A stretch of 64,000 nt of DNA, from positions 96,001-160,000 of IMG/VR virus record IMGVR_UViG_3300020411_003715, one strand, 5' to 3'. The notes below the pieces were generated by a model, which was not told the DNA's origin, searched no databases, and saw nothing but the letters and a program-made list of their open reading frames with translations. Positions 1 to 31,656 of this stretch are shown here, piece by piece. Source of the DNA: a virus. Position 1 is the stretch's first letter, and the number at the start of each line of letters is the position of its first letter. The position numbers were made by a program, and so were the translations under genes.

Positions 1-111
1 CAATCTAAGATGGTTGGCTTTTATCAGGTTATGGGTGGTCGTGAAGAGGTAAGAAATGTCCAACGGGATGTTAAAGACCTCATCGTAAAAGACGTCAATA
101 TGAAGGTTTGA
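1..111 (+). CDS. 3' end of an upstream gene (partial; ...QSKMVGFYQVMGGREEVRNVQRDVKDLIVKDVNMKV*)
   Basis: Frame 1 is open from base 1 to TGA at 109-111, on the same strand as the downstream block. Not in the ORF track. Confidence 0.6.
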   Translation, partial: QSKMVGFYQVMGGREEVRNVQRDVKDLIVKDVNMKV

Positions 112-134
112 GCCTTATCTTTGTGGAGCGGCGT

Positions 135-1385
135 ATGAGTGTAGACATAGAAAAGTTAGCCCGAAAGTGGAGTAGGGACAAGAAAGAGGAGGCGCAACGA
201 AGAGCCGGCTTTTGGGCAGGCGCTTCTGCACCAGTTCTTGCTGGCCGTCACGGAAAAGGTCAGCATATATCCCCCTTTCAAGGAGTTCAGTTTGAGAGCG
301 TACGGGACCTAACCAGAAATGTTCGAACCGGTGACGTTCTTCTCGTCGCAGATGGCAAAAGACCGTTTAGCGCGAAGAAGGCTCTTATCTCTATCGGCAC
401 AGGGATACCTGATGGTTACCATGCCGCTGTCGTCGCCGGCGTCTCCAAGAAGAAGGGTGAGATTGAGATACTGGACCTCACCTTTAAGGGTTACCAGCGC
501 AAGGCCATCGCAGCCAGCAATATAAACAGTTACTCCTTATTTAGAATAAGCGATCCGGCTAAACAAAAGGCTGTGGTCGATAACATGCATAGGCTGGTTA
601 ATACACAGAAGCGATTAAATGCTGCTCTCAAAAGAGAGGGGATGAGTTCCCGCGCAATCAGAAAAGTTAATCGTGCGATGTACGCCGAGACTATTAATCC
701 CGTAATTGGTGTTAGGGAACTCTTTGTTCCTTATGTCCAAGACAGATCGGTGCGTAACGCTAATTACGTAAAAAAGGTCGAGCGGGAACTTAAGTTTGTG
801 TCTAGTAATATCAACGGTATTGCAAAAGACATGGTCGACTACTGGAAGCAGACGGGCAAGATCGATACCTCAAACCTTAAGCCTATCCAGCGAGTTTGCA
901 CAAGTGTAGCCGCCTCTGTGGGTGTGCCCATCGGTGCGACATCTCACCCCAAATGGGCTGGGCCCAATGATATTCTTAGGGGAAAAGGTCTCAGGCCCAT
1001 TGGATATAAGGTCTCCCCGAAGCACACTAACTTTGTAAAGCTTTATGACGGACTCCTTAAGGTTATGCCTAATATCGTGAGGGGTGCTGCTGGGGTAGGT
1101 CTTGGTGGTTTTGTTGCAGGAACGATTGCTACGAGACAGGCACTGAAGCGTAGCGCTGAGCGTCGTGAAGCCAGGAAGGCTCGTGCAGAAAATAAGCTAA
1201 AAATGAAGAAACGCGTTCATGTAAAGGGGCATATGCGTGGAAGAAAGTACGTGAAGTCACACACAAAGATGGCCTACGTCTACGAGCGAATGTCGATGGA
1301 CGATCTACAAGATAGGGCGTATGCTCATGGACTAAGTAAGTCGGCTGCGATAATGGAAATTATCAAATCAAAGATTACGGAGTAA
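135..1385 (+). CDS. Permuted papain-like (YiiX/YaeF-type NlpC/P60) enzyme with basic, Gly-zipper C-terminal modules
   Basis: GDVLLV...GYHAAVV (His) precedes QRVCTSVAASVGVP...GPNDIL (Cys), the permuted order. ATG at 135 follows GGAG; the track start at 108 is possible. Confidence 0.65.
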   Translation: MSVDIEKLARKWSRDKKEEAQRRAGFWAGASAPVLAGRHGKGQHISPFQGVQFESVRDLTRNVRTGDVLLVADGKRPFSAKKALISIGTGIPDGYHAAVVAGVSKKKGEIEILDLTFKGYQRKAIAASNINSYSLFRISDPAKQKAVVDNMHRLVNTQKRLNAALKREGMSSRAIRKVNRAMYAETINPVIGVRELFVPYVQDRSVRNANYVKKVERELKFVSSNINGIAKDMVDYWKQTGKIDTSNLKPIQRVCTSVAASVGVPIGATSHPKWAGPNDILRGKGLRPIGYKVSPKHTNFVKLYDGLLKVMPNIVRGAAGVGLGGFVAGTIATRQALKRSAERREARKARAENKLKMKKRVHVKGHMRGRKYVKSHTKMAYVYERMSMDDLQDRAYAHGLSKSAAIMEIIKSKITE

Positions 1386-1389
1386 TAGT

Positions 1390-2064
1390 TTGAGTAGTCC
1401 CGAACAATATAACGCGAATCAGATGGATATGGGCAGATTTACAGACGCCCAGGTCACACACCTCGTTGAATTCTGGCAAGAGCACAGAGGATTAACCGTT
1501 GACGGATATTGCGGACCCCAAACGCAAAGGGACCTTTTGCAGGACATGTTTGGTAACAGCGCTGTTCCTAGTAATCTAGGTCTTATGGCACTGGAGGTGG
1601 CAATCACGGAGATCGGTAATGGTGAATTGGGCGTTAACAATGCTGGGGATCATGTTGCTCGCTATTTTGGAGTCAGCGAAGACCGTGGCAGCTCTGCTAT
1701 TGGCTCTTGGTGCGCTGCTTTTGTTGGGTATTGTTGTGAGCGTGCAGCAGGTGACCTCGGTATTGAGTTACCCTTTCAAAGATCCGGCGGAGCGAAAGCT
1801 ACTTATAAAAGAGTGGGAGAGGCGGGACAATTTATTGAGGTAAGTGAGGCCCTTCCGGGAGACGTTGTCTGTTGGGATCGAGGCAAGCTTCTTCCCAACG
1901 GACAACCCTCTTGGCAGGGTCATATAGGCTTTGTTGAAAAGCTACAAGAGGGTATTCTTTATACTATTGAGGGGAACGTTGGACGTTTCCCGTCAAAAGT
2001 TAGACGGTTTATGCACGATATAGACAAAGAACCCAGACTCATTGGGTGCGCGAGGTTGCCATGA
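1390..2064 (+). CDS. Endolysin/peptidoglycan hydrolase: N-terminal PG-binding domain plus CHAP/NlpC-P60 (TIGR02594-like) domain
   Basis: VEFWQEHRGLTVDGYCGPQT (PG_binding_1-like); WCAAFVGYC, GDVVCWDRG, GHIGFVE, YTIEGN (CHAP Cys-His motifs). Confidence 0.85.
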   Translation: MSSPEQYNANQMDMGRFTDAQVTHLVEFWQEHRGLTVDGYCGPQTQRDLLQDMFGNSAVPSNLGLMALEVAITEIGNGELGVNNAGDHVARYFGVSEDRGSSAIGSWCAAFVGYCCERAAGDLGIELPFQRSGGAKATYKRVGEAGQFIEVSEALPGDVVCWDRGKLLPNGQPSWQGHIGFVEKLQEGILYTIEGNVGRFPSKVRRFMHDIDKEPRLIGCARLP

Positions 2065-2783
2065 ACGCTTTGGAAAAATACGCAGCTAATAAGAAGCTCG
2101 CCACCCTGCTCAAGGAAGCGAAGATCGAGAAACTGGCCTGGGAGTCAGCAGACCCAGAAATCTCTGGCGACAAGCTGTTGATGGTCTTTAGAGGCTCAAA
2201 CCCAAAAACCATGACCATGGCTAAAGCCCGTGGGCTAAAGCCCGCTTTTGATGAAGAGCTTGGCGGTGGGTATAAGGCTTCACAAGAGATAACCGACCCG
2301 GCAAGAAAGAAAGAGATCTTAGCCGACCTCGTAAGAAAGCAAAAGAAAGCGAAGGACAGGCGCAGCGGGATCTTCGGAAGAAGGCCGTGGATCGGGAAAA
2401 AAAGAAAAAAGCGTTATGACTTTGAATCCGCACACTTAGATAAACTCACTGCCATGGCGGATAAGATGAAGAGTGCCGCCGCTAAAAAGAAACCGACCAA
2501 GAAGGTAGAACTTGAGCCGGACAGGCTGCGCAGGGCAATGGCCGGAGGAATGCTAGGCGGTGGTGCCGCGCTTCCAGCGGCCACCTTGTCCGCCCTGATT
2601 ACCAGAAACCCGCAGTTCCTCAAGGACATTGCCAAAGGGACCGCGAAAGGTGTAGGGGCAGGAGCGCTTTTGGGGCAAGCCTTCCCGATCATGAAGGGGA
2701 AGGACGATGGTCCAATGCGGCTGGTAAGAGAGACCAAGGGGCCTCGCAAAGGGAAGCTGGTCTTTGCCAGGGAAAACGAATAG
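2061..2783 (+). CDS. MNALEKYAA-leader basic protein with Gly-zipper segments
   Basis: ATG 2061 overlaps the lysin stop (ATGA). Begins MNALEKYAANKKLATLLKEAKIEKLAW; contains GGMLGGGAALPAA and KGVGAGALLG. Confidence 0.8.
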   Translation: MNALEKYAANKKLATLLKEAKIEKLAWESADPEISGDKLLMVFRGSNPKTMTMAKARGLKPAFDEELGGGYKASQEITDPARKKEILADLVRKQKKAKDRRSGIFGRRPWIGKKRKKRYDFESAHLDKLTAMADKMKSAAAKKKPTKKVELEPDRLRRAMAGGMLGGGAALPAATLSALITRNPQFLKDIAKGTAKGVGAGALLGQAFPIMKGKDDGPMRLVRETKGPRKGKLVFARENE

Positions 2784-2785
2784 AT

Positions 2786-3214
2786 ATGAACGTACTAGAA
2801 AAATACGCGGCAAAGCGGCTTCTCATTAAGAAGTTAGCCTCAGCCAACCCGTTTCAGGTTAGCGCCTCGCATACTAGTAACCCGGCATTGAGTTGGCAAA
2901 AGCGGGATCGCCCAACCACAGGCGTCCGAAGGGCTCTACATAAGACAGAGGGTGCCACCGATAATCTCTTACGGCATGCTTACAGTAAAAATGCACCTTC
3001 AGGCGCACGACAAAGACCGCAGTCGAGCACTAATTTGAATGTAAAAACGGGCCCAATAAGCTTTGGCGGATCACTTAGAGGCGGCAAGATCTCCGGATAC
3101 AAAGTGGGACTGAGCGGGAACCTCACCAAAAACCTAAGCGGAAGAGCGTCAGTCAACGTGCCAGTTGGCGGGGGAAGCCCTAGATACTCAGCGGGCCTTA
3201 ATTGGAGATTTTAA
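2786..3214 (+). CDS. MNVLEKYAA-leader protein ending in amphipathic beta-strands and C-terminal Phe
   Basis: Leader MNVLEKYAAKRLLIKKLAS; C-terminus YSAGLNWRF; starts 2 nt after the previous stop. Confidence 0.8.
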   Translation: MNVLEKYAAKRLLIKKLASANPFQVSASHTSNPALSWQKRDRPTTGVRRALHKTEGATDNLLRHAYSKNAPSGARQRPQSSTNLNVKTGPISFGGSLRGGKISGYKVGLSGNLTKNLSGRASVNVPVGGGSPRYSAGLNWRF

Positions 3215-3215
3215 T

Positions 3216-3548
3216 ATGAACGAACTAGAAAAATACGCAGCCAAGCGCAAGCTTGCCGCTGAGTTAATTAAGCGGGCCTATCTTGCTCGGATTGCGCAGG
3301 GCCTCAAGCACTTTGCAACGGGCGCTAGAACGCAAGCTAGAAAGGCGAGGAAATTCTTTATGGGTGGCGTGAGGTCTGGAAAGTACCGCCATAGTATGTG
3401 GAGCGCAAACCCCCTCCAACGGGCCGCGTACAATACTGGGAGAGCTTTGGGAAGAGGCGTCCCTGCAATAGGAAGAGGAGTCAATAGGGTGGGAACGCGA
3501 CTCAAGGACTATGGCAGTAGACTTATAGGAAGAGGAAGAATCGTATAA
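3216..3548 (+). CDS. MNELEKYAA-leader small Arg/Gly-rich protein
   Basis: In-frame ATG at 3216, 1 nt after the previous TAA; MNELEKYAAKRKLAAELIKRAYL. Confidence 0.8.
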   Translation: MNELEKYAAKRKLAAELIKRAYLARIAQGLKHFATGARTQARKARKFFMGGVRSGKYRHSMWSANPLQRAAYNTGRALGRGVPAIGRGVNRVGTRLKDYGSRLIGRGRIV

Positions 3549-4156
3549 TGAATGCTTTAGAGAAATACGCCGCCATGGGTAACTCACCCTTTACACGCCA
3601 GATGCTCAGCGGGAGCGGTCTCCCTGGTTACTCCAAGGGCGGGCCTGTGAAGAAAGATGGTTACCTGACTGACAAGAAGGGCAAGCCATACGCTCGTGTA
3701 CACAAGGGCGAGAAAGTAGTACCTCAAAAGAAAAAGGAAGCCTCAACCATGAATGCTTTAGAAAAGTATGCTGCTAAGCGAAAGCTTATTAGCGAACTCA
3801 CCAAGCAAGCTTGGCTACTCCAGGGCGGTAAGGCGCTTGCCACGAAAGCCTGGGGAGCAGCAAAGCCAGTCCTCTCGGCAATCGGAAAGCCTGTTAAACA
3901 AGTTGCAACCCTCCCAGGCCGAGTAGCTAACCGCCTCGCAAAGCCAGTGGGGCAATGGGCTAAACGTAACCCCAAAAAAGCGATAGCAATGGGGGGAACG
4001 GGCATGGGTGCCATGATCTCCGATGAGATGACGGACTGGACAGGCAAGAAAAGACGTGCGGATGCCAGAAGGGCTGCAAGGTGGGCCAAGCAGTCAACTG
4101 GCGCGGGCCAGAGAACTGGCACCTTCGTCCGAAGCACCCTCAATAAAAATAATTAG
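3548..4156 (+). CDS. Double-leader protein (MNALEKYAA at aa 1 and again at aa 68)
   Basis: TAATG overlap with the previous gene; second in-frame MNALEKYAAKRKLISELTKQAW at 3749. Confidence 0.8.
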   Translation: MNALEKYAAMGNSPFTRQMLSGSGLPGYSKGGPVKKDGYLTDKKGKPYARVHKGEKVVPQKKKEASTMNALEKYAAKRKLISELTKQAWLLQGGKALATKAWGAAKPVLSAIGKPVKQVATLPGRVANRLAKPVGQWAKRNPKKAIAMGGTGMGAMISDEMTDWTGKKRRADARRAARWAKQSTGAGQRTGTFVRSTLNKNN

Positions 4157-4166
4157 GGGTGACTCT

Positions 4167-4547
4167 ATGAGCCCATTGGAAAAATATGCAGCTAAGAAGC
4201 TTCTTATTACGAAGCTTGCGTCGAATGCCCTTAGGCTCGGAAAGAAGAAGGCTGTCCGTGTTATGGAGGCGATCACCAAAAGAAGTAAGTCCGTCAAAGA
4301 GACTCGTGAAGCCATGCCTACCGCCATGCGGAAAGTGCTGGGCAAAGAGAAGATCGTCAAGAACCTAGCTGAGCTTCCTCGGGAAGTAGCGAGGACCGCC
4401 AGGAAGATAGAGAATAAACTCGGGCCAAACAAGGGGCTGGAATATGCATTTGCTCAGCTAGCTAAAGGTACGAAGCACCCAAGCTTTAGAGGCAAAGCGA
4501 AGTCCGGCCCTGATTGGAACAAACGACCCAAGAAGAGATCAGTATGA
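4167..4547 (+). CDS. MSPLEKYAA-leader Lys-rich protein
   Basis: In-frame ATG at 4167 after GGGGTGA; MSPLEKYAAKKLLITKLAS. Confidence 0.8.
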   Translation: MSPLEKYAAKKLLITKLASNALRLGKKKAVRVMEAITKRSKSVKETREAMPTAMRKVLGKEKIVKNLAELPREVARTARKIENKLGPNKGLEYAFAQLAKGTKHPSFRGKAKSGPDWNKRPKKRSV

Positions 4548-4834
4548 ACGCACTAGAGAAGTACGCGGCGAAGCGAAAGCTGGCTGGCCACCTTGGCGCG
4601 GCTATGGGCATGAACGAAGACGCACATATGTTGTGCAAGATTCTTGACACCACTGCTGCGCAAGCGATTGCGCTTAAAAAGAAGATCGCCATGGGCAAGA
4701 GGCTTCCGTCCTGGGCGGAGTACAAGGTGTACAAGGCGGGGGACGCTATTAAGTCCGCATACTCTTCTACGTATTCGATGGCCGACCACGCACCAAAGAT
4801 AAGCATAATGATTGGTGGCCGTAGGCCTTATTAA
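4544..4834 (+). CDS. MNALEKYAA-leader small helical protein (LPSW motif)
   Basis: ATGA overlap with the previous stop; MNALEKYAAKRKLAGHL...KRLPSWAEYKVYKA. Confidence 0.8.
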   Translation: MNALEKYAAKRKLAGHLGAAMGMNEDAHMLCKILDTTAAQAIALKKKIAMGKRLPSWAEYKVYKAGDAIKSAYSSTYSMADHAPKISIMIGGRRPY

Positions 4835-4850
4835 ACTTAAAGGAAAGGTT

Positions 4851-5318
4851 ATGAACGCACTAGAAAAATATGCAGCTAAGCGGAAGCTTACTGAAGAATT
4901 AACCAAGCGGGCAGCCCTTCTCCCAGGATTCGTTGCTGGAGGGAAGGCAGTGCTTCACGGGATCAAGGGCGCACTGGGTCGAGCCGGCGGGGCGGTTAAG
5001 CGTACTGGCAGGGCCGCGTGGCAGGGTGTTCAAAAGGCTGACAAGGCAGTAGAGCGCGGCCTCCAGCGCGTTCTGGACCGCACTCCTGGCACTAGCTCGA
5101 ATAAGGCGATGAAAGCCATCAAGGCAAATCAAGCTCAGGCTAAGGCCAAGTTCGTCAACATGAGAGCCGCTACCGGCAGGAGATTCACCGCTGCCAGTAA
5201 TGCGCGCAGGGGTGAGGGCATGCGAAACTTCGCCACTAACAAAGGGGTCCATAGTGTCTTAAAGAGAACTGGGCCATCCCCGGGCACCCGGCTACTGAAT
5301 AAGAAGATAGTTACATAA
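4851..5318 (+). CDS. MNALEKYAA-leader basic amphipathic protein
   Basis: AAGGAAAGG upstream; MNALEKYAAKRKLTEELTKRAALL. Confidence 0.8.
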   Translation: MNALEKYAAKRKLTEELTKRAALLPGFVAGGKAVLHGIKGALGRAGGAVKRTGRAAWQGVQKADKAVERGLQRVLDRTPGTSSNKAMKAIKANQAQAKAKFVNMRAATGRRFTAASNARRGEGMRNFATNKGVHSVLKRTGPSPGTRLLNKKIVT

Positions 5319-5335
5319 TGTAGGGGGTTGCTGGG

Positions 5336-6310
5336 ATGGCGTACAACTATAGCAAGGGCGAACAAGCCAGCGGGGACATCAGGTCGGAGGACGACCCGGA
5401 CACCAAGGTTGACTTTGGGTCTGATCGTATAAATCTGGTTGTCGGTGGCTCTGCTAAATTAGCAACCTATTCTCAAGGCGTCCTTCTAGACGGCATGATG
5501 GGGATCGGGGAGGCAAACTCCATACCCACGCCCATCAGCAATTGTGGACAGGTGTTCGCCCTTGATGCTGGGGACAAGGACACTGCGTTGCTTTTTAAGT
5601 TCGAGGGATCTGAGGCCTACCTCACGGACTATAGCAAGTTCGCCACGAACGCTTGGCTCATGGGGTCTTCCGCGACCACGTCTACTTCGGTGTACAAGTG
5701 GGGATCTCGCTCACTAAGACTTCAGCAGAGCAACGCCTCTTATGGGGATTATGACCGTGTTAGCGTGCCGCACACCTACTTCAACCCCAGGTACGAGTCG
5801 TTTACTGTTGAGTGTTGGCTGTACGCAACATCGAACCCAGGCTCAGGAGATGTAGCGACTATAGCCACGCAAGCAAACGAAGACAGTAATTGGGCGTTTG
5901 TCTTGTCTTCTTCGGGAAGACTTGCCATCGGAATCGCCGGTGGATCGACATGGCTCGCCACGTCCGGGACGATTACCCTTAATCAGTGGTGCCACGTTGC
6001 CGCCGTACATGATATTAATTGGTCGAACAACACGTTTACAACGTCTATATACATAGACGGAACCCAGAGCGCGACATCTGCTGAGTCTGGGACGACATCT
6101 TACTGGTCAAGCACGGAGAATCCTTTGGTCATAGGGTACATGAATGATGGCTCTGACCACTCACCCCTTGAAGGGTACATAGATGATTTCCGGGTTAGCA
6201 CCACTGCGAGGTACAGCGGTTCCTCGTTTTCGGTACCGACCAGCTCCTTAGGGGGGACGACCGCTATGTTTGCGCAATCTGCCAACGGGGAGATGCGGAG
6301 AATTAGTTAA
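5336..6310 (+). CDS. LamG/concanavalin-A-like lectin domain virion protein
   Basis: FTVECWLY...NQWCHVAAV...SIYIDG...LVIG...GYIDDFRVSTTARY, typical of Laminin_G_3 domains. Confidence 0.8.
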   Translation: MAYNYSKGEQASGDIRSEDDPDTKVDFGSDRINLVVGGSAKLATYSQGVLLDGMMGIGEANSIPTPISNCGQVFALDAGDKDTALLFKFEGSEAYLTDYSKFATNAWLMGSSATTSTSVYKWGSRSLRLQQSNASYGDYDRVSVPHTYFNPRYESFTVECWLYATSNPGSGDVATIATQANEDSNWAFVLSSSGRLAIGIAGGSTWLATSGTITLNQWCHVAAVHDINWSNNTFTTSIYIDGTQSATSAESGTTSYWSSTENPLVIGYMNDGSDHSPLEGYIDDFRVSTTARYSGSSFSVPTSSLGGTTAMFAQSANGEMRRIS

Positions 6311-6414
6311 CGTGGGCGTGCACAGATGAATTACCGCTTAATATCTGAGGTACCTCATCTGGCACGTACGACATATAATACTTTTAGGCTTTTTGGATAG
6401 AGTGAGGACTAAAA

Positions 6415-7053
6415 ATGAATTTATTAGACAAGACCATATGGGGGACGCTCCTTGAGAAGGTCGCCAATACTGTTGCCGAAGGAACCGTTGGCTCTTCGAT
6501 GAAGCCTGCGGCCGTCCAACAAGCTTCGCCCACGCCTGGGCCTGCCCCAAACCCGCAAGCTTCGCCCACGCCTCTGGTCAGACCCAATCCACAAGCCTCA
6601 CCCACACCTGGGACCGGGAGCGGCCCGAGTATACCGGGACTCAAAGACCCAAAAGCATACTTAGATGCCATGAGAAAGCTTAAGAGCCAGCACAACACGG
6701 CAACCCCAGAGGGGCAGCAGGCATACCAAGCGGCTTGGAAGAGAACCCAGAAAGCCTTTGGCCTTTCCACAAACCCACAAGAGTTTGGTGCAGGTTTGGT
6801 GCAGCAGAGTCCTGATCTAGCAAAACGATTAGAGCAGTCAAAGGGAGGAGCAGAGTGGAGCAAAAACAATCCCTTCCTAAAAGCTAAAGGAAACCAGCAA
6901 GGGGGGAGTAGCGCTTCTACATCTGGCAACCCCATGACCGTGGCGAGACCCCTAAGGAAAACCGCTCCAACGGCCAATCCAGCAGCGGGCTTTAAACCAC
7001 CTAAGCTTAAGCTACCTAAGTTGCCTAGTGTAACTAACCTTCAGCCTAAATAA
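6415..7053 (+). CDS. Pro/Gln/Ala-rich hypothetical protein with LEKVA motif
   Basis: 212-aa ORF with GAGG upstream; TLLEKVANT; low-complexity PT repeats. Confidence 0.7.
   Translation: MNLLDKTIWGTLLEKVANTVAEGTVGSSMKPAAVQQASPTPGPAPNPQASPTPLVRPNPQASPTPGTGSGPSIPGLKDPKAYLDAMRKLKSQHNTATPEGQQAYQAAWKRTQKAFGLSTNPQEFGAGLVQQSPDLAKRLEQSKGGAEWSKNNPFLKAKGNQQGGSSASTSGNPMTVARPLRKTAPTANPAAGFKPPKLKLPKLPSVTNLQPK
6520..6612 (+). repeat. In-frame tandem repeat, 36-bp period, 3 copies of QASPTP(G/L)
   Basis: caagcttcgcccacgcct at 6520 and 6556, variant caagcctcacccacacct at 6592. Confidence 0.9.
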
Positions 7054-7069
7054 GGGGTTTGGCTGAACA

Positions 7070-7603
7070 ATGCCTTCTAAAGAGCAAATACATCGGCTTG
7101 CCGATAAGCTAAACATACCCTGGGACAATGACCCCTCTTTCAAGTCATGGTCCAAGAGGGTCACTGGGAAAGCGCATCTTGACAACATGACTCCCGAAGA
7201 GCTTAGCAGGCTGAAGAAAGCCCTAGCCAAGAGAAGGGCGAAGAAGAAGCTAGCATCGGCTTTTTCCGAGAGTTTGTACAAGGAGGCATCACTCCTTGCA
7301 AAAGCGTTGGCGTTCGTTAAAAAGCTTAAGTCTGCTCCCAAAAAGGTGAAGAGCTTTGCTGGAGGATTACCTAAAGATGAGCTTGCTGTGTTCAATATCG
7401 GGCTTGCCTCACCCCTTCCCGGAGGAAGTATTGCGGGATGGGGAGCGTATAAGGGTGCGAAAGAGGGGATTAAGGCGCTTAAGGACGGTCTCCCATTTTC
7501 AGCCTACAGAAAGTTGAACAAGGCTGTAGCGAAGAGCGATAGAATTAATTTTACCAAAAAGGGTGGCCTTCTTCCGTTGTACCTAGGGATGGGCCGGCAC
7601 TAA
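7070..7603 (+). CDS. Lys-rich hypothetical protein with KLAS/KEAS motifs
   Basis: 177-aa ORF; RRAKKKLASAFSESLYKEASLL; hydrophobic hairpin FNIGLASPLPGGSIAGWGAY. Confidence 0.7.
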   Translation: MPSKEQIHRLADKLNIPWDNDPSFKSWSKRVTGKAHLDNMTPEELSRLKKALAKRRAKKKLASAFSESLYKEASLLAKALAFVKKLKSAPKKVKSFAGGLPKDELAVFNIGLASPLPGGSIAGWGAYKGAKEGIKALKDGLPFSAYRKLNKAVAKSDRINFTKKGGLLPLYLGMGRH

Positions 7604-7608
7604 CTTGC

Positions 7609-7636
7609 TCGACAAGTGGAATGGTGAATGTATAAT
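7609..7636 (+). promoter_or_regulatory. Candidate sigma70-type promoter TCGACA-N16-TATAAT
   Basis: TCGACA 7609-7614 and TATAAT 7631-7636 in an AT-rich intergenic gap ahead of two small genes. Confidence 0.4.
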
Positions 7637-7700
7637 TCACACCCCTGTTGTAATAATGCTATTAGGGGTTAATACTTTAACTGATAATTGGAGGTCTAGA

Positions 7701-7811
7701 ATGAATGAGTATATGTGGGGAGTTGTTACCGGATCTGTTGTAACACCCTTCGCCTGGGTTTGTTTAAAATGGTGTATGGCCAAGCTTAAAGCGGTTCTTG
7801 CTAAGAACTAA
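7701..7811 (+). CDS. 36-aa hydrophobic, possibly membrane-associated protein
   Basis: GGAGG then ATG at 7701; MNEYMWGVVTGSVVTPFAWVCLKWCMAKLKAVLAKN. Confidence 0.6.
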   Translation: MNEYMWGVVTGSVVTPFAWVCLKWCMAKLKAVLAKN

Positions 7812-7821
7812 GGAGAATAGA

Positions 7822-8001
7822 ATGACACTTCAGATGGCCGTTCAGGCTTTATCGACAAAACTTGGCAGCGCCCTTGAGGACATTGCCAAGTTTGAGGACA
7901 AGGGTAATGACGCTGCTGCTCGAAGAGCGCGTAAAAGCCTTCAAGAGATTGCTGTAGCATGCAAAGAGCTTCGGGCAGCGATTCAGGAAAAGCGTAAGTA
8001 G
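7822..8001 (+). CDS. Histone H1-like (Hc1-family) small DNA-binding protein
   Basis: AGGAG RBS at 7811; KFEDKGNDAAARRARKSLQEIAVACKELR resembles the GNKAAGxRARK motif of small bacterial/phage Hc1-like proteins (recalled, not searched). Confidence 0.7.
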   Translation: MTLQMAVQALSTKLGSALEDIAKFEDKGNDAAARRARKSLQEIAVACKELRAAIQEKRK

Positions 8002-8075
8002 TTTTGGCTAAGTGGGGACATGGGTTTATTTATTCATAGGATTCAAGCCGCACATGGCCTAGGGAGATATAAGGT

Positions 8076-11000: not shown

Positions 11001-11645
11001 CAAGAGAGCATAGAGGCTATGCCGGCTACGACGAGGTATAACAAAACGGAGGAGTGGCTTTATACCAATGGGTACTACCAAACGCATTTTAAGCGTGATG
11101 GTACGGCTCGCACTTGGGCAGAGACGCAACAAGAGTCTCGAAAAGGGTTCACTAACGTAAGGGGGCTTGGCTTTTATAACAATGCCAATTTGCGTGACTT
11201 TATCAACGACGACCCCATGCTTGCGGGAATCACAGAGGCATCCGGAGTATATGTGTCGAGCTACGCCACCTCAGAAGAATCGGGGCTAAGCTCAGCCTTA
11301 CCGGATCCAGGCTATGTGCCTGGGGCGCTAAATGTGCACCCGTATTCCTTGATTCTTATAGATGCTACGATATCCCCAAAAGGGGTTGTGGGGTCGAACG
11401 ACCCGTTGGGATGGAGTGAATACCTCAACTATTTTTCGTGGATGGAGACCGACGCCAATGGCGCGGTGCTTCCAACCGCACAGCAAACGGCAGCGCTTCA
11501 AGCGTGCTTTGATGCCGAATGGACAACAGATCCTAATGTCTGGGGGACAGGACAACAAAGATCTGAGTACTTAGATGAGGTAGCAGAGATAGCTACCCTG
11601 CTCGGATTAACCATAAACATGTATGGGTACACCCCAACACCATAA
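8076..11645 (+). CDS. Large Ig-fold virion/surface protein (FN3 plus cadherin-like/Big_9 domains)
   Basis: DTGLTPGTTYSYTITAY and TGLTASTSYEFYVVAYN (FN3); NNAPVASD...ATDADGDALTYSI...GAYTYVP...GSDTFSFFVTDG (cadherin-like). Confidence 0.8.
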   Translation: MSCNRPTGPYDSGTNAGFQTFTAEVNTATNPSTDVKVSWIWYPDGFETHNESTPPATPTACHISHVKVYRDGVEVSSGDGVAVNRNDDHQGVPDMYDVGEFFDTGLTPGTTYSYTITAYIYDSSPAQESLPTSAVTVTTASTSNQQSNNAPVASDSSETVVENGTLTATAVATDADGDALTYSIATNPANGTVSINTSTGAYTYVPTANYIGSDTFSFFVTDGVASDSGTVSITVSRAVPNPWYISVTDAVTSPWVEGKLVWAETVSNSVDLEGFKLYQRVSGASSWTLISDVSVGLGNTPTAQQTEHIATGLTASTSYEFYVVAYNSSGNSTNSNTAYYTTVATPTGMQTIDVDEQGETGVISVTGVFYDGWGWTETDPGSQTDVTQWPNVNMISNNSMSATSTFAAGAHTIYAAAKGWATPSLTHQISFNTYNGIQTTPVVTVSQDTNTLNVSVPHSGSYDWQDLYYRVDVTGWSGSPGTLLSGTGWVAANQDASGNFSVDITGLNPSSSIGDHFIEVLGAYTENGQPEQAGSVVSATFTKWAGIQDIQVTVNGDDGTPNNVTIVVQGLSPDTPHGWRFSFTGPPEDGNGSPLTDLSSWGEFVPGEVVYTNPNTTHNTMIKRAGTYDVWAQACWDDGTPVVANPLVAGKGYVQYGPFTVAQHAYTGLTELDVHLLGDNRIRLHARGHEDTAYDHWRYSINNMFSGSAPGDSISGEGVSVPDGDTVEVDLTEDQLETGRVIIYAAGVDTNDLLISAASGSQPVLVRVVEVPEAPGTVVTLDTSYDPSSIEVSPHFFQPAVAERISEDAIRVTSADLATALGFTTQATLDQFIPAYEDSLALLESLSVAPPNFGSADFSAMVTDNFLTIDNGILSDTTAASGGGIMKLVDELDTPRAVLSWRISKLAREGSITNERAQELLFGSTFETPHTLETTDANNNPVEAQTTSVTRRFLSVGDTNPTVTHGASDGIAYSTQESIEAMPATTRYNKTEEWLYTNGYYQTHFKRDGTARTWAETQQESRKGFTNVRGLGFYNNANLRDFINDDPMLAGITEASGVYVSSYATSEESGLSSALPDPGYVPGALNVHPYSLILIDATISPKGVVGSNDPLGWSEYLNYFSWMETDANGAVLPTAQQTAALQACFDAEWTTDPNVWGTGQQRSEYLDEVAEIATLLGLTINMYGYTPTP

Positions 11646-11657
11646 GGAGCGCTGATA

Positions 11658-11990
11658 ATGAGACCACTTTTTACTATTTTACTTTTACTCGCCGTTATCC
11701 CTGACTTTGTTGGTTGTGCATCGGATGACTGCCACACCCAAGCAGATCAAGACGCCATGGAAGTGGCGGACGCACTTTCTGATGAAGATGTCGATGCACC
11801 AGACGGCTCTTGGCATGACCAGTACATCGCAGACAATTGCGCAAGATGCCCAGACTGCTGTGTTGATATCGGTGATGCTGACGCAGAAGCCGACGCAGAG
11901 GTTGATGCCGCTGGGGATGCCAATGATTCGGATGCTGGGGTTGATGCGGACGCCGGTGGACCAGATGCGGACGAGGAGGATGCCGAATGA
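11658..11990 (+). CDS. Predicted lipoprotein with Cys cluster and acidic D/A-rich tail
   Basis: MRPLFTILLLLAVIPDFVGC signal with possible lipobox; CARCPDCC; DADAEADAEVDAAGDANDSDAGVDADAGGPDADEEDAE. Confidence 0.6.
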   Translation: MRPLFTILLLLAVIPDFVGCASDDCHTQADQDAMEVADALSDEDVDAPDGSWHDQYIADNCARCPDCCVDIGDADAEADAEVDAAGDANDSDAGVDADAGGPDADEEDAE

Positions 11991-12373
11991 ACGCTCTAGA
12001 GAAACATGCCAAGAAAAAGGAAAAAGAGAAGGACGCATCAGCCACACTTCCTGCAGAGCAGCTTATCGGGATGCGAGAAGAGATGGAGGACATCTGGAGA
12101 GAAGAGGTTGAGAAGGTAGCGGTGAGCATCCAGAAGGCTTATGAGATTGACAACAAGTCTAAAAACCAGCTTCGGCAAGTGGCGCAGAAAGCCATGAGTA
12201 CCGACCCTTCTGACCCAAAGCTCCAAGCTATCGCCAATCATCCCAACGCTAAAAAAATGGCGGTAGCTGCTGAGAGACTAGGAAGAAAGATCATGTCCCA
12301 AAAAGGGGGCGTGCATAAGCAACTTGCTTCTGGGTACGGAGCCCTTCCGCCAGGAACAAAAGGAATGTCTTGA
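11987..12373 (+). CDS. MNALEKHA-leader protein
   Basis: ATGA overlap with the lipoprotein stop; MNALEKHAKKK; internal EKVAVS. Confidence 0.8.
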   Translation: MNALEKHAKKKEKEKDASATLPAEQLIGMREEMEDIWREEVEKVAVSIQKAYEIDNKSKNQLRQVAQKAMSTDPSDPKLQAIANHPNAKKMAVAAERLGRKIMSQKGGVHKQLASGYGALPPGTKGMS

Positions 12374-17939: not shown

Positions 17940-17941
17940 AG

Positions 17942-18233: not shown

Positions 18234-18632
18234 ATGAATGCATTAGAAAAGCTTGCCGCCAAGCGGCGAATCGCCTCACTACTCGGACAAGAGTTGTTTG
18301 AGGAAACAGGCAAGGAAGCCGGACTTAAAGAGATTGGGAAAGCTCTCAAGGGCTTAATGTCCAAGGCAAAGAAGACCGGAAAGAAGGTCATCGAAAAAGG
18401 AAAGAAGGAAGTTGACGTTATTCGGGCAAAGCCCCAAGAACGACTTCGCGCCAAGTGGAACAAGGGCCCCTTCGTTAAGAAGAAGGTCCAGAACTCCCGA
18501 CAGGCAAACTTGGCCAAAGCAGACAAGCGCACCAAAAAGTCGCGCACACGTGCAGCAGTAGCAGCAGGTGGTGGACTTGCAGGCTTGAGCGCCCTCGGAA
18601 TCGCAACCAAAGGCAACAGCTCGCCTGAGTAA
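18234..18632 (+). CDS. MNALEKLAA-leader Lys-rich protein with C-terminal Gly-zipper
   Basis: GGAGG RBS; MNALEKLAAKRRIASLL; AAVAAGGGLAGLSALGIAT. Confidence 0.85.
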   Translation: MNALEKLAAKRRIASLLGQELFEETGKEAGLKEIGKALKGLMSKAKKTGKKVIEKGKKEVDVIRAKPQERLRAKWNKGPFVKKKVQNSRQANLAKADKRTKKSRTRAAVAAGGGLAGLSALGIATKGNSSPE

Positions 18633-18658: not shown

Positions 18659-19606
18659 ATGCTTACAGCAGAAAGACGGGCGGCGCTAGAGATGCGGCTC
18701 CAAGGTGATGACTTTTTGACGAAGCAGGCGGCCATGGAAAAGGTTGCTGCTTACAAAGATACCTATGGCTGGCTCTGGCCATTAGCCGCTGAGGGCGATG
18801 AAGACGTCGCAGAGATGCGGAAAGAGGCCTTTCTAGGAATGGCTGCTCGCTTCATTGCGGGCAAAGGTCGCCAAATGCTTGGCGCTGCCGCCAAGAAGGG
18901 CGGGGAGGTCCTGACTAGATACGGCCGAACCGGTGGTGCCGCTAGCCAAAGAGGTCAGCGGATGATCCGAAGTGGCGAGCAGACGGTTAGACGCGGTCGC
19001 GCACAGGTAGCTCAGGCTAAGAGAGCCCGTCACTGGGGGATTAGTCAGCGACAAGCAGACGTTCTGATGTCTAAGCACACTGGGCCGAAGGGCTCTGCAG
19101 CCGCTAGAGACGCAGGCGCTGCGATCAAGACGCTTGATAAGACTACTAGAAGGTCTTCTGCGAAGGCGGGTAACCGTGCTGCGAGAAAGAACATCAAGTC
19201 TACCTTAGAGCGAAAGGCGGACGCTTCTTACAAGCCGACAGTCGCTGAGCGAATCTCTAGCCGAGTGGGCTCAGGAGCAGGTGGCGCGGGCGAGAGAAGG
19301 TTCTTGCTTGAGCAGGCCAAGGGCGGTGGTTCCGCAGCGCGTGCGCAAGTTCGTCGTGATGGGGCCAAGTCCGGGTTAGTATCAAGAACCCAAGACCTCC
19401 CCAACCGAAGCCGGGATATCTACGGTCGGACTACCCGAGAGGGCATTAAGAGCCGTGGGGCCGCTCGTGTTGTGGAAGGTGTGCTTGATGCACCAACGAC
19501 CGTCAGAAACGCGGCCTCTGGCATCGGCAGCCGCCTTTCCAGCGGTTGGAGAAGCCTCACAGGTCGCAATCCTGGTGGCCGTAACGAGTGGAAGACTATG
19601 GTCTAG
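18659..19606 (+). CDS. Very basic Arg/Ala/Gly-rich protein with K-x-A motifs
   Basis: AGGAG RBS; FLTKQAAMEKVAAY and MRKEAFLG, followed by ~250 aa of R/K/A/G-rich sequence. Confidence 0.75.
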   Translation: MLTAERRAALEMRLQGDDFLTKQAAMEKVAAYKDTYGWLWPLAAEGDEDVAEMRKEAFLGMAARFIAGKGRQMLGAAAKKGGEVLTRYGRTGGAASQRGQRMIRSGEQTVRRGRAQVAQAKRARHWGISQRQADVLMSKHTGPKGSAAARDAGAAIKTLDKTTRRSSAKAGNRAARKNIKSTLERKADASYKPTVAERISSRVGSGAGGAGERRFLLEQAKGGGSAARAQVRRDGAKSGLVSRTQDLPNRSRDIYGRTTREGIKSRGAARVVEGVLDAPTTVRNAASGIGSRLSSGWRSLTGRNPGGRNEWKTMV

Positions 19607-19620
19607 GACGCTAATCTGGT

Positions 19621-20514
19621 ATGGAGCTTGTCTTGGAAATTAATCCTATATCGGATTTTCTTAAGTTTGCTGAGAAGCAGACTAAAGTTCGTGCGCATAC
19701 GCGTAGGTCCAAAGGCAAGCTTGTATCTGTAGCGCAGCATGACCGGGAAGTCTCTGGTGAAGAAGCCAAAGACACAATGTCTGGATACGATCATCCGGAA
19801 CTCCAGTTAGACGATAAAAAGGCCAGAGAGATCGAGTTGTGGACAGCTTGGAAGGAGGGGGGACAAAATCCCAGTGATTTAGAACCCCTCCTTAGAAGCT
19901 TCAGACCACTTCTTCGCTCTAAGATGAACGTCTACAAGGGGAAGATGAAGATGATCCCAGATGCCGCGATCGAGGCTGAATTCCAGCTTCGGTTTGTGGA
20001 TGCACTCCGTTCCTATAACCCCGAAAAAGGGTCTTTAGGGACGTACATCTACCGGTATCTGGACAAGTCCAAAAGGTTTATCGTCGAAAACCAGAACATT
20101 GGGAGAATTCCTGAGAATAGAATTTATAAGATTAAAGCCTACACGACAGCCAAGGACGAACTTTCTGATGATTTAGGCAGGGTTCCTTCAGTCCCTGAAA
20201 TCGCAGAGAGGCTTGGTTGGTCGTTAGCGGAAGCAAACCGGATGGATGCCGAGCTAAGGAATGATCTTATGACTCAAGGCTTTGAGGATGATCCCTATTC
20301 GATCACACCCTCAAAGTCTGAAGAGGTTCTCAGACTTTTTAAGTATGAGCTTTCCGGTGATGAGAGAGATGTCTACGAGCACCTTACAGGCTTTGGGAAA
20401 AAACAACTCACGTCGACAAGCGAAATAGCTAAGCAGCTTAAAATGCCTGATTACCGCGTTAGTCGTCTTAAAAACTCAATTCAGAAGAAATTGAAGAGGT
20501 ACTTACATGACTAG
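19621..20514 (+). CDS. Sigma-70-family RNA polymerase sigma factor (regions 2, 3, 4) with N-terminal extension
   Basis: DALRSYNPEKGSLGTYIYRY (region 2); DELSDDLGRVPSVPEIAERLGWS (region 3); LSGDERDVY...STSEIAKQLKMPDYRVSRLKNSIQKKL (region 4 HTH). Confidence 0.85.
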   Translation: MELVLEINPISDFLKFAEKQTKVRAHTRRSKGKLVSVAQHDREVSGEEAKDTMSGYDHPELQLDDKKAREIELWTAWKEGGQNPSDLEPLLRSFRPLLRSKMNVYKGKMKMIPDAAIEAEFQLRFVDALRSYNPEKGSLGTYIYRYLDKSKRFIVENQNIGRIPENRIYKIKAYTTAKDELSDDLGRVPSVPEIAERLGWSLAEANRMDAELRNDLMTQGFEDDPYSITPSKSEEVLRLFKYELSGDERDVYEHLTGFGKKQLTSTSEIAKQLKMPDYRVSRLKNSIQKKLKRYLHD

Positions 20515-22165
20515 CATGGGAAAAGAGGCGAATATCGCCAAGGTCCACTTTCTTATGAAAGAAAAGGGCATGAGCGCTAAAGAAGCTATTAAAGCGGCAT
20601 ACCCAGAGTGGTCCGATGAAAAGGTTGCAGCTTTAGCCGCCAAACTCAGCGGCATGAAAGATGCTGGCATGGGCAAGGCTAAAAAAGAGGCCCCTGCGGA
20701 AGAAAAGAAAGCGTCGGTCGAGAAGATGGAACGACTAGGCTTTAAGGACTCTCAGCGTGCTTTGATGCGCGGACTGTCTTCGGGAAAGCCCTCTGACCAG
20801 TCACTGATTGCCTCCAAGGACACAATTAAGCGACGACTTAAAGCCCATGGAAAAGGGGCACTTGTGGGTGCGCCCATTGGGGCTCTTGCTGGCCTTGCCC
20901 TTGCCCCCAAGGGTGGACGTGCTCTCGGTGCGGCCCTCCTAGGCGCGGTCAGCGCGGGGGTTGGGGGGATTGTTGGGCAGACACGGTCTGATCAGAAGTT
21001 TTTGAAGTCGAAAGGTATCGACATGAAGTGGCACGGACTTTCTGTAAAGATTACGCCCAAGGCTCGCGCCAAGTACTTCCCTGAGCACAAGTCACTTACT
21101 GACAAAACTGCTGGGGTCAAGCTTGCCAAGCTGCGAGTGCATGACATCGAAGATGAGATTGGTGATTACCTAAGCGATGCGGATGAGACCAAAGTACGCC
21201 GCATGATCACCAAGGCGAAGAAGAAAAGCTTCGCCATGCGCCATCCGATCTTAACGGGAATCCCCACGCTAGGGATCGCCCCAGCGATGGCAAACAATAA
21301 AGCTAAGATGAAGATCATTCGCCAGCTTGCGAAGTCTGACCCAAAGATGCGTAAGCAACTAAGGAAGATGCGTGAAACTAAGAGGCGAGAAGATCATGAG
21401 ATGGCCGTCGCAAGAGCAGGCAGAACCAATGTCACGGTCAACGAGAAAAGCAAAGAGTCTTCCGTAAAGCTGGCTCAAAATGCGTTTACCGCACCGAAAA
21501 AAACACACACACCAATTAAACCAGCACCAACTAGAAAGACGCCTTCATATCCCAACATTGGGTCTGCAATCCGGTCTGCAGCCAAGCTCAATCGCCCACC
21601 AAGTATTTCAGCAAGCCTTTTACCGAGGCCGTTCAAGCCGGTCGATCCCAATCGTCGTAGCCTCGGAGAGGCTATACAGGGGTCTGGGTGGGGAGCGAGA
21701 AACGACACACTCCTTAAACGGGAACAGGAGGGTAGACGCTGGCAGCTCCAGCAGCGCATCGACCGGGAGCGGAAGATGTTAGAACAGCAGCAGCAGCAGC
21801 AGCAGGGATTCAAAACAGCATCCGTTCAGCTAGTCGCCCTACAACGCGGCTCTGAGGCTCTTTATGAGGGCTACATACAAAAGCATGCTGTTTTGAATCC
21901 GGTAACCACCGCTAAAGTCTCAAAGTTTTTTAAGGGCCTAATGACGAAAGCGAAGCCCGCAGCGAAAGCCGCAGGCGAAACGGTCAAGGGCTGGGGCTCT
22001 GCACTGGCAACCAAGTTCCCAGGAGCAACTAAGAAGGCAAAAGATGCTATTGCAGAATTTGTGAAGAACAACCCTAAAGCAGCAAAGGCGATCAAGGAAA
22101 ACTGGAAGCCTGCCGCAGGCGGAGCCGCAGCGGGTGCTATTATTAGCAAGGCCATGAGTGATTAG
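20507..22165 (+). CDS. Multi-module basic protein with repeated K-x-A junctions, Gly-zippers and polyQ
   Basis: Overlaps the sigma stop; KEAN, KKAS, KTAG, KLAK, KLAQ, KTAS, KHAV; GALVGAPIGALAGLAL...GAALLGAVSAGVGGIVG. Confidence 0.75.
   Translation: MTSMGKEANIAKVHFLMKEKGMSAKEAIKAAYPEWSDEKVAALAAKLSGMKDAGMGKAKKEAPAEEKKASVEKMERLGFKDSQRALMRGLSSGKPSDQSLIASKDTIKRRLKAHGKGALVGAPIGALAGLALAPKGGRALGAALLGAVSAGVGGIVGQTRSDQKFLKSKGIDMKWHGLSVKITPKARAKYFPEHKSLTDKTAGVKLAKLRVHDIEDEIGDYLSDADETKVRRMITKAKKKSFAMRHPILTGIPTLGIAPAMANNKAKMKIIRQLAKSDPKMRKQLRKMRETKRREDHEMAVARAGRTNVTVNEKSKESSVKLAQNAFTAPKKTHTPIKPAPTRKTPSYPNIGSAIRSAAKLNRPPSISASLLPRPFKPVDPNRRSLGEAIQGSGWGARNDTLLKREQEGRRWQLQQRIDRERKMLEQQQQQQQGFKTASVQLVALQRGSEALYEGYIQKHAVLNPVTTAKVSKFFKGLMTKAKPAAKAAGETVKGWGSALATKFPGATKKAKDAIAEFVKNNPKAAKAIKENWKPAAGGAAAGAIISKAMSD
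21785..21805 (+). repeat. (CAG)7 pure trinucleotide repeat encoding polyQ
   Basis: cagcagcagcagcagcagcag, in frame. Confidence 0.95.
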
Positions 22166-22438: not shown

Positions 22439-22459
22439 GAAGAGCTTTTTTGGTGGGCA

Positions 22460-25080: not shown

Positions 25081-25914
25081 GTGTCTATTATGATTTATAA
25101 CAACGACGAACAAATAAGCAGGCTTCACAGAGCGCTTCACAAGGTCGCCGCCAGGAAGCATGGAGAAACACAAGGCGTTGCTCTTGAGAAAGTTGCTCAG
25201 GCTGCCTTTTGTGATGAGCTATCGAACATAGACCCCGATTTTGAAAAAGTAGCGTTTGGTTGGTTAGACGTCGCCCTAACTGCTGCAATGTTTGTACCCG
25301 GGCTCAACGTAGTTGCAGGTCTGGCCAGAGGCGCAGCCGTAGCCTATCGCGGGATCCAAGCTGCAAGAGCGGTTAATACGGCAGTCAAGGGCTTGAGCGC
25401 TGCGAGTAAGGTGAGAAACTACGCCCGAGGCTTGCGCGGAGTAACTCACGTAGGGAAGGGCCTCAAAGGAACTAGCCAGACCGCCCAGAAGTTCCGAGCG
25501 ATGGCAAACCCAGCAAAACCACGACAGATGAATCTGTTCGGTCAGCAAGGGACGCAGGCGGCAACAAGGGGAACTGCCTCTAACGCACAAAGAGAGCTTG
25601 GTAAGCAACTTGGCACTCTCCAAAGGAAAACCCAGCGAGGGAATAGGTTCACGAGAATGCTTGGTCAGAACCAATCCAATATTCGCGCAAGCCAAGCACA
25701 GCAAGGGTTTAAGCACAGCATTAAGAGATCGCTCAAGGGACAGGCAAGCGTGCCCGGTTCGGCAGCGGCTTTTGGTGCGAATGCTTATTTTGGTGGCTGG
25801 GATGCAACTAAGCGCCTGATGGACGGAACGAGCGGCAAGACCATGGGTCAGGGCGGCCCCGGGTACGGTGCGAAAGGGCTTTCCACCATGAAAAACCTCA
25901 ACCGGGCGGGGTAA
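25081..25914 (+). CDS. Basic K-x-A-motif protein with hydrophobic helical hairpin
   Basis: VALEKVAQAAFCDELSNIDPDFEKVAFGWLDVALTAAMFVPGLNVVAGLARGA. Confidence 0.75.
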   Translation: MSIMIYNNDEQISRLHRALHKVAARKHGETQGVALEKVAQAAFCDELSNIDPDFEKVAFGWLDVALTAAMFVPGLNVVAGLARGAAVAYRGIQAARAVNTAVKGLSAASKVRNYARGLRGVTHVGKGLKGTSQTAQKFRAMANPAKPRQMNLFGQQGTQAATRGTASNAQRELGKQLGTLQRKTQRGNRFTRMLGQNQSNIRASQAQQGFKHSIKRSLKGQASVPGSAAAFGANAYFGGWDATKRLMDGTSGKTMGQGGPGYGAKGLSTMKNLNRAG

Positions 25915-31644: not shown

Positions 31645-31656
31645 GTGTAGGTTATT

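Follow-up and report, generated by a model that had tools for sequence, protein, structure and literature searches.

A shared N-terminal leader on dissimilar small basic proteins of an uncultured myovirus: a candidate recognition and loading propeptide of the head protease

The leader array

The stretch of DNA analysed here (the window) comprises 64,000 nucleotides and corresponds to positions 96001-160000 of one 180,106-bp virus contig, IMG/VR record IMGVR_UViG_3300020411_003715; coordinates are those of the window unless marked as genome positions. Between positions 2061 and 5318, seven consecutive open reading frames (ORFs) on the + strand encode proteins that share an N-terminal peptide, M-N-A-L-E-K-Y-A-A-K or near variants of it (MNV, MNE, MSP), hereafter the leader. 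The seven ORFs carry eight copies, whose ATG codons lie at positions 2061, 2786, 3216, 3548, 3749, 4167, 4544 and 4851. An earlier examination of the letters alone (the sequence-only reading) had reported seven consecutive coupled genes with eight leader copies, and we recovered the same arrangement, with all eight on the + strand. The genes of the locus are listed below with their lengths in amino acids (aa), isoelectric points (pI) and scores against the leader profile described further on.

1390..2064, + strand: PG_binding_1 and CHAP peptidoglycan hydrolase (context gene), directly 5′ of leader gene 1 with an ATGA overlap; Pfam CHAP 1.1e-08, PG_binding_1 0.0022; PHROG endolysin families
2061..2783, + strand: leader protein 1, 240 aa, pI 10.3; 19.7 bits; second E-K-L-A at residue 28; 23-residue Gly/Ala-rich hydrophobic stretch
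2786..3214, + strand: leader protein 2 (MNVLEKYAAK), 142 aa, pI 11.6; 31.2 bits; a related phage has an orthologue that keeps leader and payload
3216..3548, + strand: leader protein 3 (MNELEKYAAK), 110 aa, pI 11.9; 30.7 bits
3548..4156, + strand: double-leader ORF, 202 aa; leaders at residues 1 and 68 (ATG 3749), 26.0 and 39.0 bits
4167..4547, + strand: leader protein 5 (MSPLEKYAAK), 126 aa, pI 10.9; 29.4 bits
4544..4834, + strand: leader protein 6, 96 aa, pI 9.8; 32.2 bits
4851..5318, + strand: leader protein 7, 155 aa, pI 11.9; 37.7 bits

The junctions of the array are tight: neighbouring genes overlap by ATGA at 2061 and 4544 and by TAATG at 3548, and the remaining gaps measure 1-16 nucleotides. 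A scan of positions 1-8200 for sigma-70 promoters and terminators detected no promoter-like or terminator-like site above chance inside the array. In the ORF at 3548-4156, the second leader is complete with its Met, lies in frame and is preceded by a ribosome-binding-like site, AAGGAAG, before ATG 3749; it is equally possible that this ORF encodes a polyprotein or that it contains nested starts.

Pairwise comparison of leader codons 2-10 gave 276 synonymous and 109 non-synonymous changes, which confirms the statement of the sequence-only reading that the codon differences between copies are largely synonymous. Codon identity between copies ranged from 33 to 75% at third positions and was mostly 83-100% at first and second positions (two first positions showed 58% and 75%), and the DNA located 5′ of the leader copies showed no conservation. 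Because the copies differ in their codons and their upstream DNA is unrelated, the leader is under selection as a peptide and not as a DNA repeat. An element acting at the DNA level, either a repeat or a regulatory site, was also considered and was ruled out by the variable third codon positions and the non-conserved upstream DNA.

The strict pattern [LIVM]EK[YFW]A had no match outside the array in the six frames of the window and one more match in the whole genome, at genome position 13879. A looser scan located further leaders beyond the array at window positions 11987 and 18234 and at genome positions 13879 and 37084 (MNPLEKLAAK). Using a profile built from 81 distinct leader 20-mers, we obtained exactly 12 genome sites, with scores of 19.7-39.0 bits, while the best other site in the six frames reached 6.7 bits. 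The genome-wide motif scan that had been suggested as a check of the sequence-only reading thus gave 12 sites and none of intermediate score. The two additional leader genes of the window are as follows.

11987..12373, + strand: leader protein (MNALEKHAKK), 128 aa; 20.4 bits; second E-K-V-A at residue 42
18234..18632, + strand: leader protein (MNALEKLAAK), 132 aa, pI 10.7; 27.6 bits; Gly/Ala-rich hydrophobic stretch

The first of these genes begins within the end of another ORF (11658-11990), whose stop overlaps its start by ATGA. That ORF encodes a very acidic protein of 110 aa with a signal peptide, a lipobox-like VGC and Asp-Ala repeats, which may be a lipoprotein of the spanin-like or exclusion-like type.

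Downstream of the first motif, the leader frequently contains a second one. Within leader residues 12-28, K-x-A was present in 51 of 90 leader 30-mers, compared with 20.2±3.7 in shuffled sequences, in line with the second K-x-A noticed by the sequence-only reading; the narrower K-hydrophobic-A, often as a full IEKLA, was present in 32 of the 90, compared with 8.2±2.6.

The core motif in the proteome and in head proteins

An inspection of N-termini revealed LEKVA-like strings in other structural proteins. The motif E-K-[VILMYFWH]-A was then counted in the predicted proteome, and its expectation was obtained from residue-shuffled proteomes. This motif, E-K-hydrophobic-A, occurred 33 times against 6.1±2.0 in the shuffled proteomes, and 21 occurrences were left after the 12 leaders had been removed. 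Five permuted controls (KE-hydrophobic-A, EK-hydrophobic-G, DK-hydrophobic-A, ER-hydrophobic-A and EKA-hydrophobic) all fell within about two standard deviations of expectation. The same enrichment was observed in related phages (23 versus 2.0, 13 versus 1.3 and 9 versus 1.0), where the controls were likewise flat. The only cultured relative that we found, Salmonella phage Arash, is distant (28% identity for the large terminase subunit, TerL, and 29% for the sigma factor); its first 30 kb showed no enrichment of the motif (0 versus 1.0 expected), and no leader was found in Arash.

All but four of the non-leader copies are located in the + strand structural blocks, and most of those are near the N-terminus of their protein. 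The four copies in non-structural genes correspond to the chance level, and the one that could be checked is not conserved. Proteins with the core motif, and one protein with a degenerate leader, include the following; coordinates are given for those in the window.

Capsid protein: motif at residue 24
Acidic 202-aa protein: motif at residue 34
Acidic 262-aa protein: motif at residue 43
224-aa protein: motif at residue 12
663-aa protein: motif at residue 13
362-aa protein: motif at residue 137
108..1385, + strand: 425-aa basic protein; core motif IEKLA at ORF residue 15, no full leader
6415..7053, + strand: 212-aa basic protein; core motif LEKVA at residue 14
18659..19606, + strand: 315-aa basic protein, pI 11.4; core motif MEKVAA at residue 27
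20507..22165, + strand: 552-aa basic protein; leader degenerate (MTSMGKEANIAKV)
25081..25914, + strand: 277-aa basic protein; core motifs at residues 36 and 55, the second kept as EKFA in a related phage (G002)

Orthologues keep the motif in five of these proteins, namely the capsid protein (residue 24), the 202-aa protein (34), the 262-aa protein (43), the 362-aa protein (137) and the 277-aa protein (55). In the 262-aa protein the motif is an invariant island in a sequence that is otherwise only 40% identical, and the motif of the 362-aa and 277-aa proteins is retained between changing flanks. Over its first ~50 residues, the 552-aa protein shows homology to the MNALEKYANIAKV module with which double-leader ORFs begin in related phages, and its degenerate leader represents a case of natural leader loss.

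The genome encodes a prohead protease outside the window, at genome positions 21277-23055 (~560 aa from the likely start; PHROG 'head maturation protease' 5.4e-12), with more than 1000 homologues; one of these stems from a metagenome-assembled genome labelled Alteromonadaceae, a weak hint at the host. Its AlphaFold model consists of a confident N-terminal domain (residues 1-216) and a C-terminal region of ~300 residues. The best matches of the model in the PDB were to T4 gp21 (5JBL; probability 1.00, target TM (template modelling) score 0.62-0.67, E about 3e-3), followed at lower ranks by herpesvirus proteases, and residues His104 and Ser160 are invariant in 37 homologues. In these 37 homologues, x-K-V-A-S is found directly after the catalytic domain, with a second (E/T)-K-hydrophobic-A ~30 residues further on; both K-hydrophobic-A variants lie inside a linker of low model confidence (predicted local distance difference test, pLDDT, <50) between the protease domain and the C-terminal half. 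One complex prediction of the protease with the first 45 residues of a leader protein scored 0.00, which speaks neither for nor against binding. Additionally, the catalytic domain of the protease has an insertion with three invariant Cys residues that resembles a zinc ribbon, and some homologues (P0129, P0152, P0156, P0161 and P0174) contain Hint/LAGLIDADG intein domains.

No protein of the lineage is better conserved than the major capsid protein (397 aa, genome 25764-26957; 82-84% identity), with which the protein annotated as capsid in Arash shares 37% identity. The model of the major capsid protein adopts the HK97 fold and gave 338 matches in the PDB at E<=0.001. Nearly all capsid homologues down to ~50% identity retain K-[IVLF]-A at residues 25-27, and the preceding Glu varies in the more distant ones. 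Between the protease and capsid genes, the usual scaffold position, lie the genes of the two strongly acidic proteins of 202 and 262 aa (pI 4.1), which on the basis of this location and composition are putative scaffold-like proteins.

Payloads, related phages and genome context

The part of each protein that follows the leader, its payload, differs from gene to gene. The 12 leader proteins of the genome all have a basic pI (9.5-11.9) and a high content of Gly, Ala, Lys and Arg, payload lengths range from 75 to 245 residues, and a Gly/Ala-rich hydrophobic stretch of 19-23 residues is present in only some payloads. The best payload pair within the genome had a BLASTP E of 0.5, and single-linkage clustering at E<1e-3 of 85 payload segments from all sources gave 63 clusters, with the 12 of this genome in 12 different clusters. 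The view of the sequence-only reading that the sequences after the leader are unrelated is borne out to this extent; deep homology among payloads of such low complexity may still exist, which qualifies it.

Searches for known relatives of the payloads returned little. None of the seven array proteins had a match in Pfam or PHROG. One payload family from related phages and databases contains an HExxH motif, HELGH. When ten longer proteins were scanned with Pfam (eight leader-bearing database proteins and two basic proteins of the window that lack a full leader), the only matches were to Zn_peptidase_2, below threshold, in two members of this family. For leader protein 7, tblastn against phage records yielded chance-level matches only (tape-measure and minor tail proteins, E 0.1-5), and the look-alikes of the 240-aa leader protein in the ESM Atlas all scored 0.79 or lower, under the meaningful level. 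A leader of the bacteriocin type, or of the type found in ribosomally synthesised and post-translationally modified peptides, was rejected, given payloads of 75-245 residues and a leader without a double-glycine end, although no scan for a leader peptidase or transporter was made.

At the DNA level, window positions 1-8000 had no match in 50,697 phage records. Using a degenerate DNA pattern, we found the leader in seven IMG/VR contigs of 8-181 kb, on differing payloads. A word-indexed search with a 45-residue leader alignment retrieved 21 proteins, and an exhaustive HMMER search of 1.84 billion representative proteins retrieved 67 leader clusters (<50% identity) at E<=0.001, in nearly all of which the leader starts at residue 1; the sources include Tara Oceans. 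Three complete relatives of 173-181 kb with terminal repeats had 8, 2 and 8 profile matches at E<=1, of which 5, 2 and 7, respectively, were below 1e-6 and the others weak. Several ORFs in the relatives and several database proteins contain two or three in-frame leaders, as does the ORF at 3548-4156.

In the relatives, leader genes occupy other positions than in the present phage: some precede the CHAP gene, others follow the sheath block or lie between neck genes. Orthologues of the CHAP gene are 61-62% identical in related phages, with leader genes adjacent in two of them and within ~3.5 kb in a third. In two relatives, the CHAP gene is followed by ~2 kb of unmatched sequence and then by the orthologue of the 574-aa gene located at window position 12598. 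Because the relatives hold different gene content between these two conserved genes, window 2061-12373 behaves as a variable island. The LamG gene located 3′ of the array had an orthologue in none of five related records. The comparison across related phages proposed along with the sequence-only reading thus revealed a conserved leader with varying payloads and positions.

Elsewhere in the genome, a large terminase gene is located at genome positions 16260-17990 (PHROG 4e-66) and a tail sheath gene at genome positions 30745-35169, and the window holds Baseplate_J, a baseplate PHROG, a sigma-factor-like gene and four ORFs of 1913-2735 aa. Based on the sheath, the baseplate genes and the giant ORFs, we classify the phage as a large myovirus. 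Of the four giant ORFs (window 31657-62131; 2690, 2318, 1913 and 2735 aa), only the first contains a domain that could be recognised, Baseplate_J (residues 123-240); all four presumably encode proteins of the baseplate or of fibres.

The sigma-70-like gene (window 19621-20514; Sigma70_r3; PHROG sigma factor 5e-14) lies inside the structural block, and its product shares 68-69% identity with its counterparts in relatives and 29% with Arash gp10, a protein detected in Arash virions (PMC10585845). The 1201-aa protein of window 14334-17939 is 27% identical at its N-terminus, over 152 residues, to Arash gp8, a virion cell-wall hydrolase of 1165 aa; the CHAP domain of the present phage is encoded apart from it, in the separate 224-aa gene beside the array. 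A 608-aa helicase (genome 14181-16007; DNA-helicase PHROG 2.7e-54, weak 'DarB-like antirestriction' PHROG 1.8e-07) is encoded directly after the ORF with the leader at genome position 13879 and just before the large terminase. Both genome ends (1-60 and 180047-180106) contain the tandem unit AGCAGGGGGCGC, probably as a result of how a terminal repeat or circular permutation was assembled.

Readings of the leader and known systems

The reading that we favour, and consider moderately probable, is that the leader is a recognition and loading propeptide of the head protease, the counterpart of the capsid targeting sequence (CTS) of T4. A short motif common to the N-terminal extension of the capsid protein, the scaffold-like proteins and the linker of the protease is the kind of trace that prohead proteases leave. 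The leader would be an N-terminal propeptide built around the recognition site of the phage's own gp21-fold serine prohead protease; by analogy with T4, it would confer on the small basic proteins an affinity for the core of protease and scaffold in the assembling prohead, where they would be enclosed and their leader then trimmed by the protease. Once mature, the basic proteins would remain with the DNA, which they may accompany out of the particle at infection. ORFs with two or three in-frame leaders would be polyproteins split at the same sites, and the recurrence of such ORFs fits a role of the leader as a cleavage joint. The cut is placed next to K-hydrophobic-A because K-hydrophobic-A is invariant, and Glu dispensable, in the capsid and protease sites. 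It would lie on the C-terminal side of about residue 8, presumably after Ala and before a small residue rather than after Glu, and would often be accompanied by another cut around residues 18-21. We infer that the leader binds and is cut, where precisely the scissile bond lies, and that the proteins are present in virions and ejected. In favour of this reading we also count that the particles of the distant relative Arash hold 116 proteins, including a wall hydrolase and a sigma factor (PMC10585845).

The sequence-only reading had proposed a distinct, undescribed addressing and cleavage signal on variable virion payloads, with K-x-A marking the cut. Its addressing and cleavage component gains computational support from the gp21-fold protease encoded in the genome, from the core motif in the capsid and scaffold-like proteins and from K-hydrophobic-A in the protease linker, and K-x-A as the cut mark would fit the invariant K-hydrophobic-A of these sites. 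Its claim of a distinct system was too strong, as the leader would be of the same kind as the T4 CTS (PMC9026906, PMC3012670).

Several observations weigh against the propeptide reading. Cleavage alone does not explain the invariance of M-N-A or the strict N-terminal placement of the leader, and internal leader copies nearly always keep their Met, which fits separate translation starts. In the capsid protein, conservation extends over the entire N-terminal segment of ~45 residues, so that the motif there could be structural and not a cut site, and three motif sites, two in the 663-aa protein (residues 506 and 532) and one in the 552-aa protein, are not conserved. One complete related phage has just two leaders, indicating that the leader set is dispensable or replaceable, and the 552-aa protein, as the orthologue present in this phage, has lost the leader and yet persists. 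Furthermore, the array sits in the tail/baseplate block beside the endolysin-like CHAP gene and not in the head block, and some payloads look membrane-active.

In an alternative reading, the leader would be a docking peptide that remains on the mature protein, with E-K-hydrophobic-A binding one conserved assembly partner (scaffold core, portal or inner capsid surface) in the manner of the cargo-loading peptides of encapsulins. In favour of docking, the 10-mer is invariant and strictly N-terminal, the motif is located in the conserved N-terminal helix of the capsid protein, and the high conservation of this protein would suit an invariant partner. We nevertheless find docking without cleavage unlikely, since two K-hydrophobic-A variants are located in the disordered linker after the protease domain, where T4 gp21 and SPN3US gp245 have their self-release sites (PMC9026906, PMC10052503), and since the multi-leader ORFs make better sense with cut joints. 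A fast-evolving paralogue family is somewhat harder still to credit. Here, a small basic and partly membrane-active protein would have been duplicated in tandem, with its N-terminal helix kept for a function of its own (holin-like, lysis-accessory or DNA-binding) while the rest diverged. The array does adjoin a PG_binding and CHAP gene of endolysin-like architecture, the payloads are basic and of low complexity, some with Gly/Ala-rich hydrophobic stretches, similarity between low-complexity sequences fades fast, and a Gly-zipper cluster came up as a weak lead in the ESM Atlas (score 0.78, under the meaningful level). However, leader genes are dispersed over the head, tail-sheath and baseplate blocks, also far from the lysin, and their positions shift between relatives; the hydrophobic stretches are present only in some payloads, and the family with HExxH and weak Zn_peptidase_2 matches indicates that the payloads are not of one kind. 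Nor can paralogy explain the core motif in the capsid and scaffold-like proteins or K-hydrophobic-A in the protease linker.

The position of the array also raises the possibility that the leader directs small proteins into the lumen or baseplate of the contractile tail and not into the head, as do the N-terminal signals of payloads of the Photorhabdus virulence cassette (PVC) and antifeeding prophage (Afp) type. The phage has a contractile tail, 10 of the 12 leader genes are in the tail/baseplate block (Baseplate_J and a baseplate PHROG), and one follows just after the sheath and the next three genes. We judge tail loading improbable because the core motif is found in the parts of head assembly, that is, in the capsid, the acidic scaffold-like proteins and the protease linker; moreover, the internal-protein genes of T4 likewise lie outside the head gene block.

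A more far-reaching form of the propeptide reading is tentative and, in our estimation, doubtful. In this form, the gp21-fold protease would have a K-hydrophobic-A specificity, cutting before a small residue, that is nearer to herpesvirus assemblin than to T4, and the 10-mer would be a portable load-and-release tag, such that any tagged gene, or string of genes in frame, could be packed into the head and cut free. The lineage would thereby maintain an open-ended and rapidly exchanged library of at least 63 payload clusters, some Gly-zipper-like and one a putative zinc peptidase, injected together with the DNA.

If the propeptide reading is correct, T4-style loading of polymorphic internal proteins by a short protease-linked tag would also exist in unrelated, uncultured marine myoviruses of ~180 kb, apparently reinvented, with a sharper tag (an invariant 10-mer), more tagged genes per genome and polyprotein forms as well. 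A search for the tag would then provide a listing of probable head cargo from sequence data only, a cleavage motif would be predicted for a gp21-fold protease whose sites are unlike those of T4 and the giant phages, and the leader would be a candidate portable tag for packing foreign proteins into capsids.

The closest known system is that of T4. Its internal proteins are basic, of about 8-20 kDa, vary between related phages and carry N-terminal propeptides of 10-19 residues, the CTS, which confer affinity for the core until gp21 removes them; in IPIII, a segment of 10 N-terminal residues is enough for loading (PMC9026906, PMC3012670). Cleavage by gp21 follows (L/I)-x-E, and its substrates are the scaffold core, the capsid and internal proteins and gp21 itself (PMC9026906). 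As with the CTS of IPI, IPII, IPIII and Alt, a peptide of ~10 residues is found here at the N-terminus of dissimilar small basic proteins, the set varies between phages, a gp21-fold protease is encoded, and the tag contains a motif that also occurs in capsid and scaffold or scaffold-like proteins. The differences are that the leader proteins show no sequence similarity to the T4 CTS or internal proteins (there being no Pfam or PHROG match for the seven array proteins) and that the motif is E-K-hydrophobic-A, with K-hydrophobic-A invariant and E dispensable, instead of (L/I)-x-E. The genome has 12 tagged genes, compared with the three internal proteins plus Alt of T4, a second motif is frequent ~10 residues downstream, ORFs with two or three leaders recur, and the protease is fused to a C-terminal region of ~300 residues.

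In the giant phage SPN3US, the protease gp245 processes itself as well as nine head proteins; it cleaves after A-x-E, and a propeptide contains several such sites (PMC10052503). The giant-phage systems (phiKZ gp175 and SPN3US gp245; PMC10052503, PMC5694885) resemble the present one in their N-terminal propeptides on many head or ejection proteins, a single short motif (A-x-E), the self-release of the protease and the presence of several sites; they differ in that their propeptides vary (20-254 residues) and have only a 3-residue motif in common, whereas here the whole 10-mer is invariant and portable. In P1, an N-terminal signal of 10-30 residues is sufficient for loading DarB into the capsid (PMC9024508), and the genome described here encodes the helicase with the weak DarB-like match; the P1 signal is known on one protein and not on a family, and it has no link to a protease motif. 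The protease of the present phage has one further parallel.

Herpesvirus assemblin has release and maturation sites of the form (V/L/I)-x-A, cut before S. It shares with the phage protease its fold class and a site that ends in Ala and a small residue just after the protease domain; the viruses are different, and here Lys is located two residues before the Ala, with a hydrophobic residue directly before it. Measured against these systems, the leader represents no new principle, as this kind of system is known from T4. What is new is the sequence and invariance of the tag, the number of tagged genes, the tandem second site and the multi-leader ORFs, together with the evidence that a gp21-fold protease may use a site centred on K-hydrophobic-A that is also present in the capsid, scaffold-like and protease sequences.

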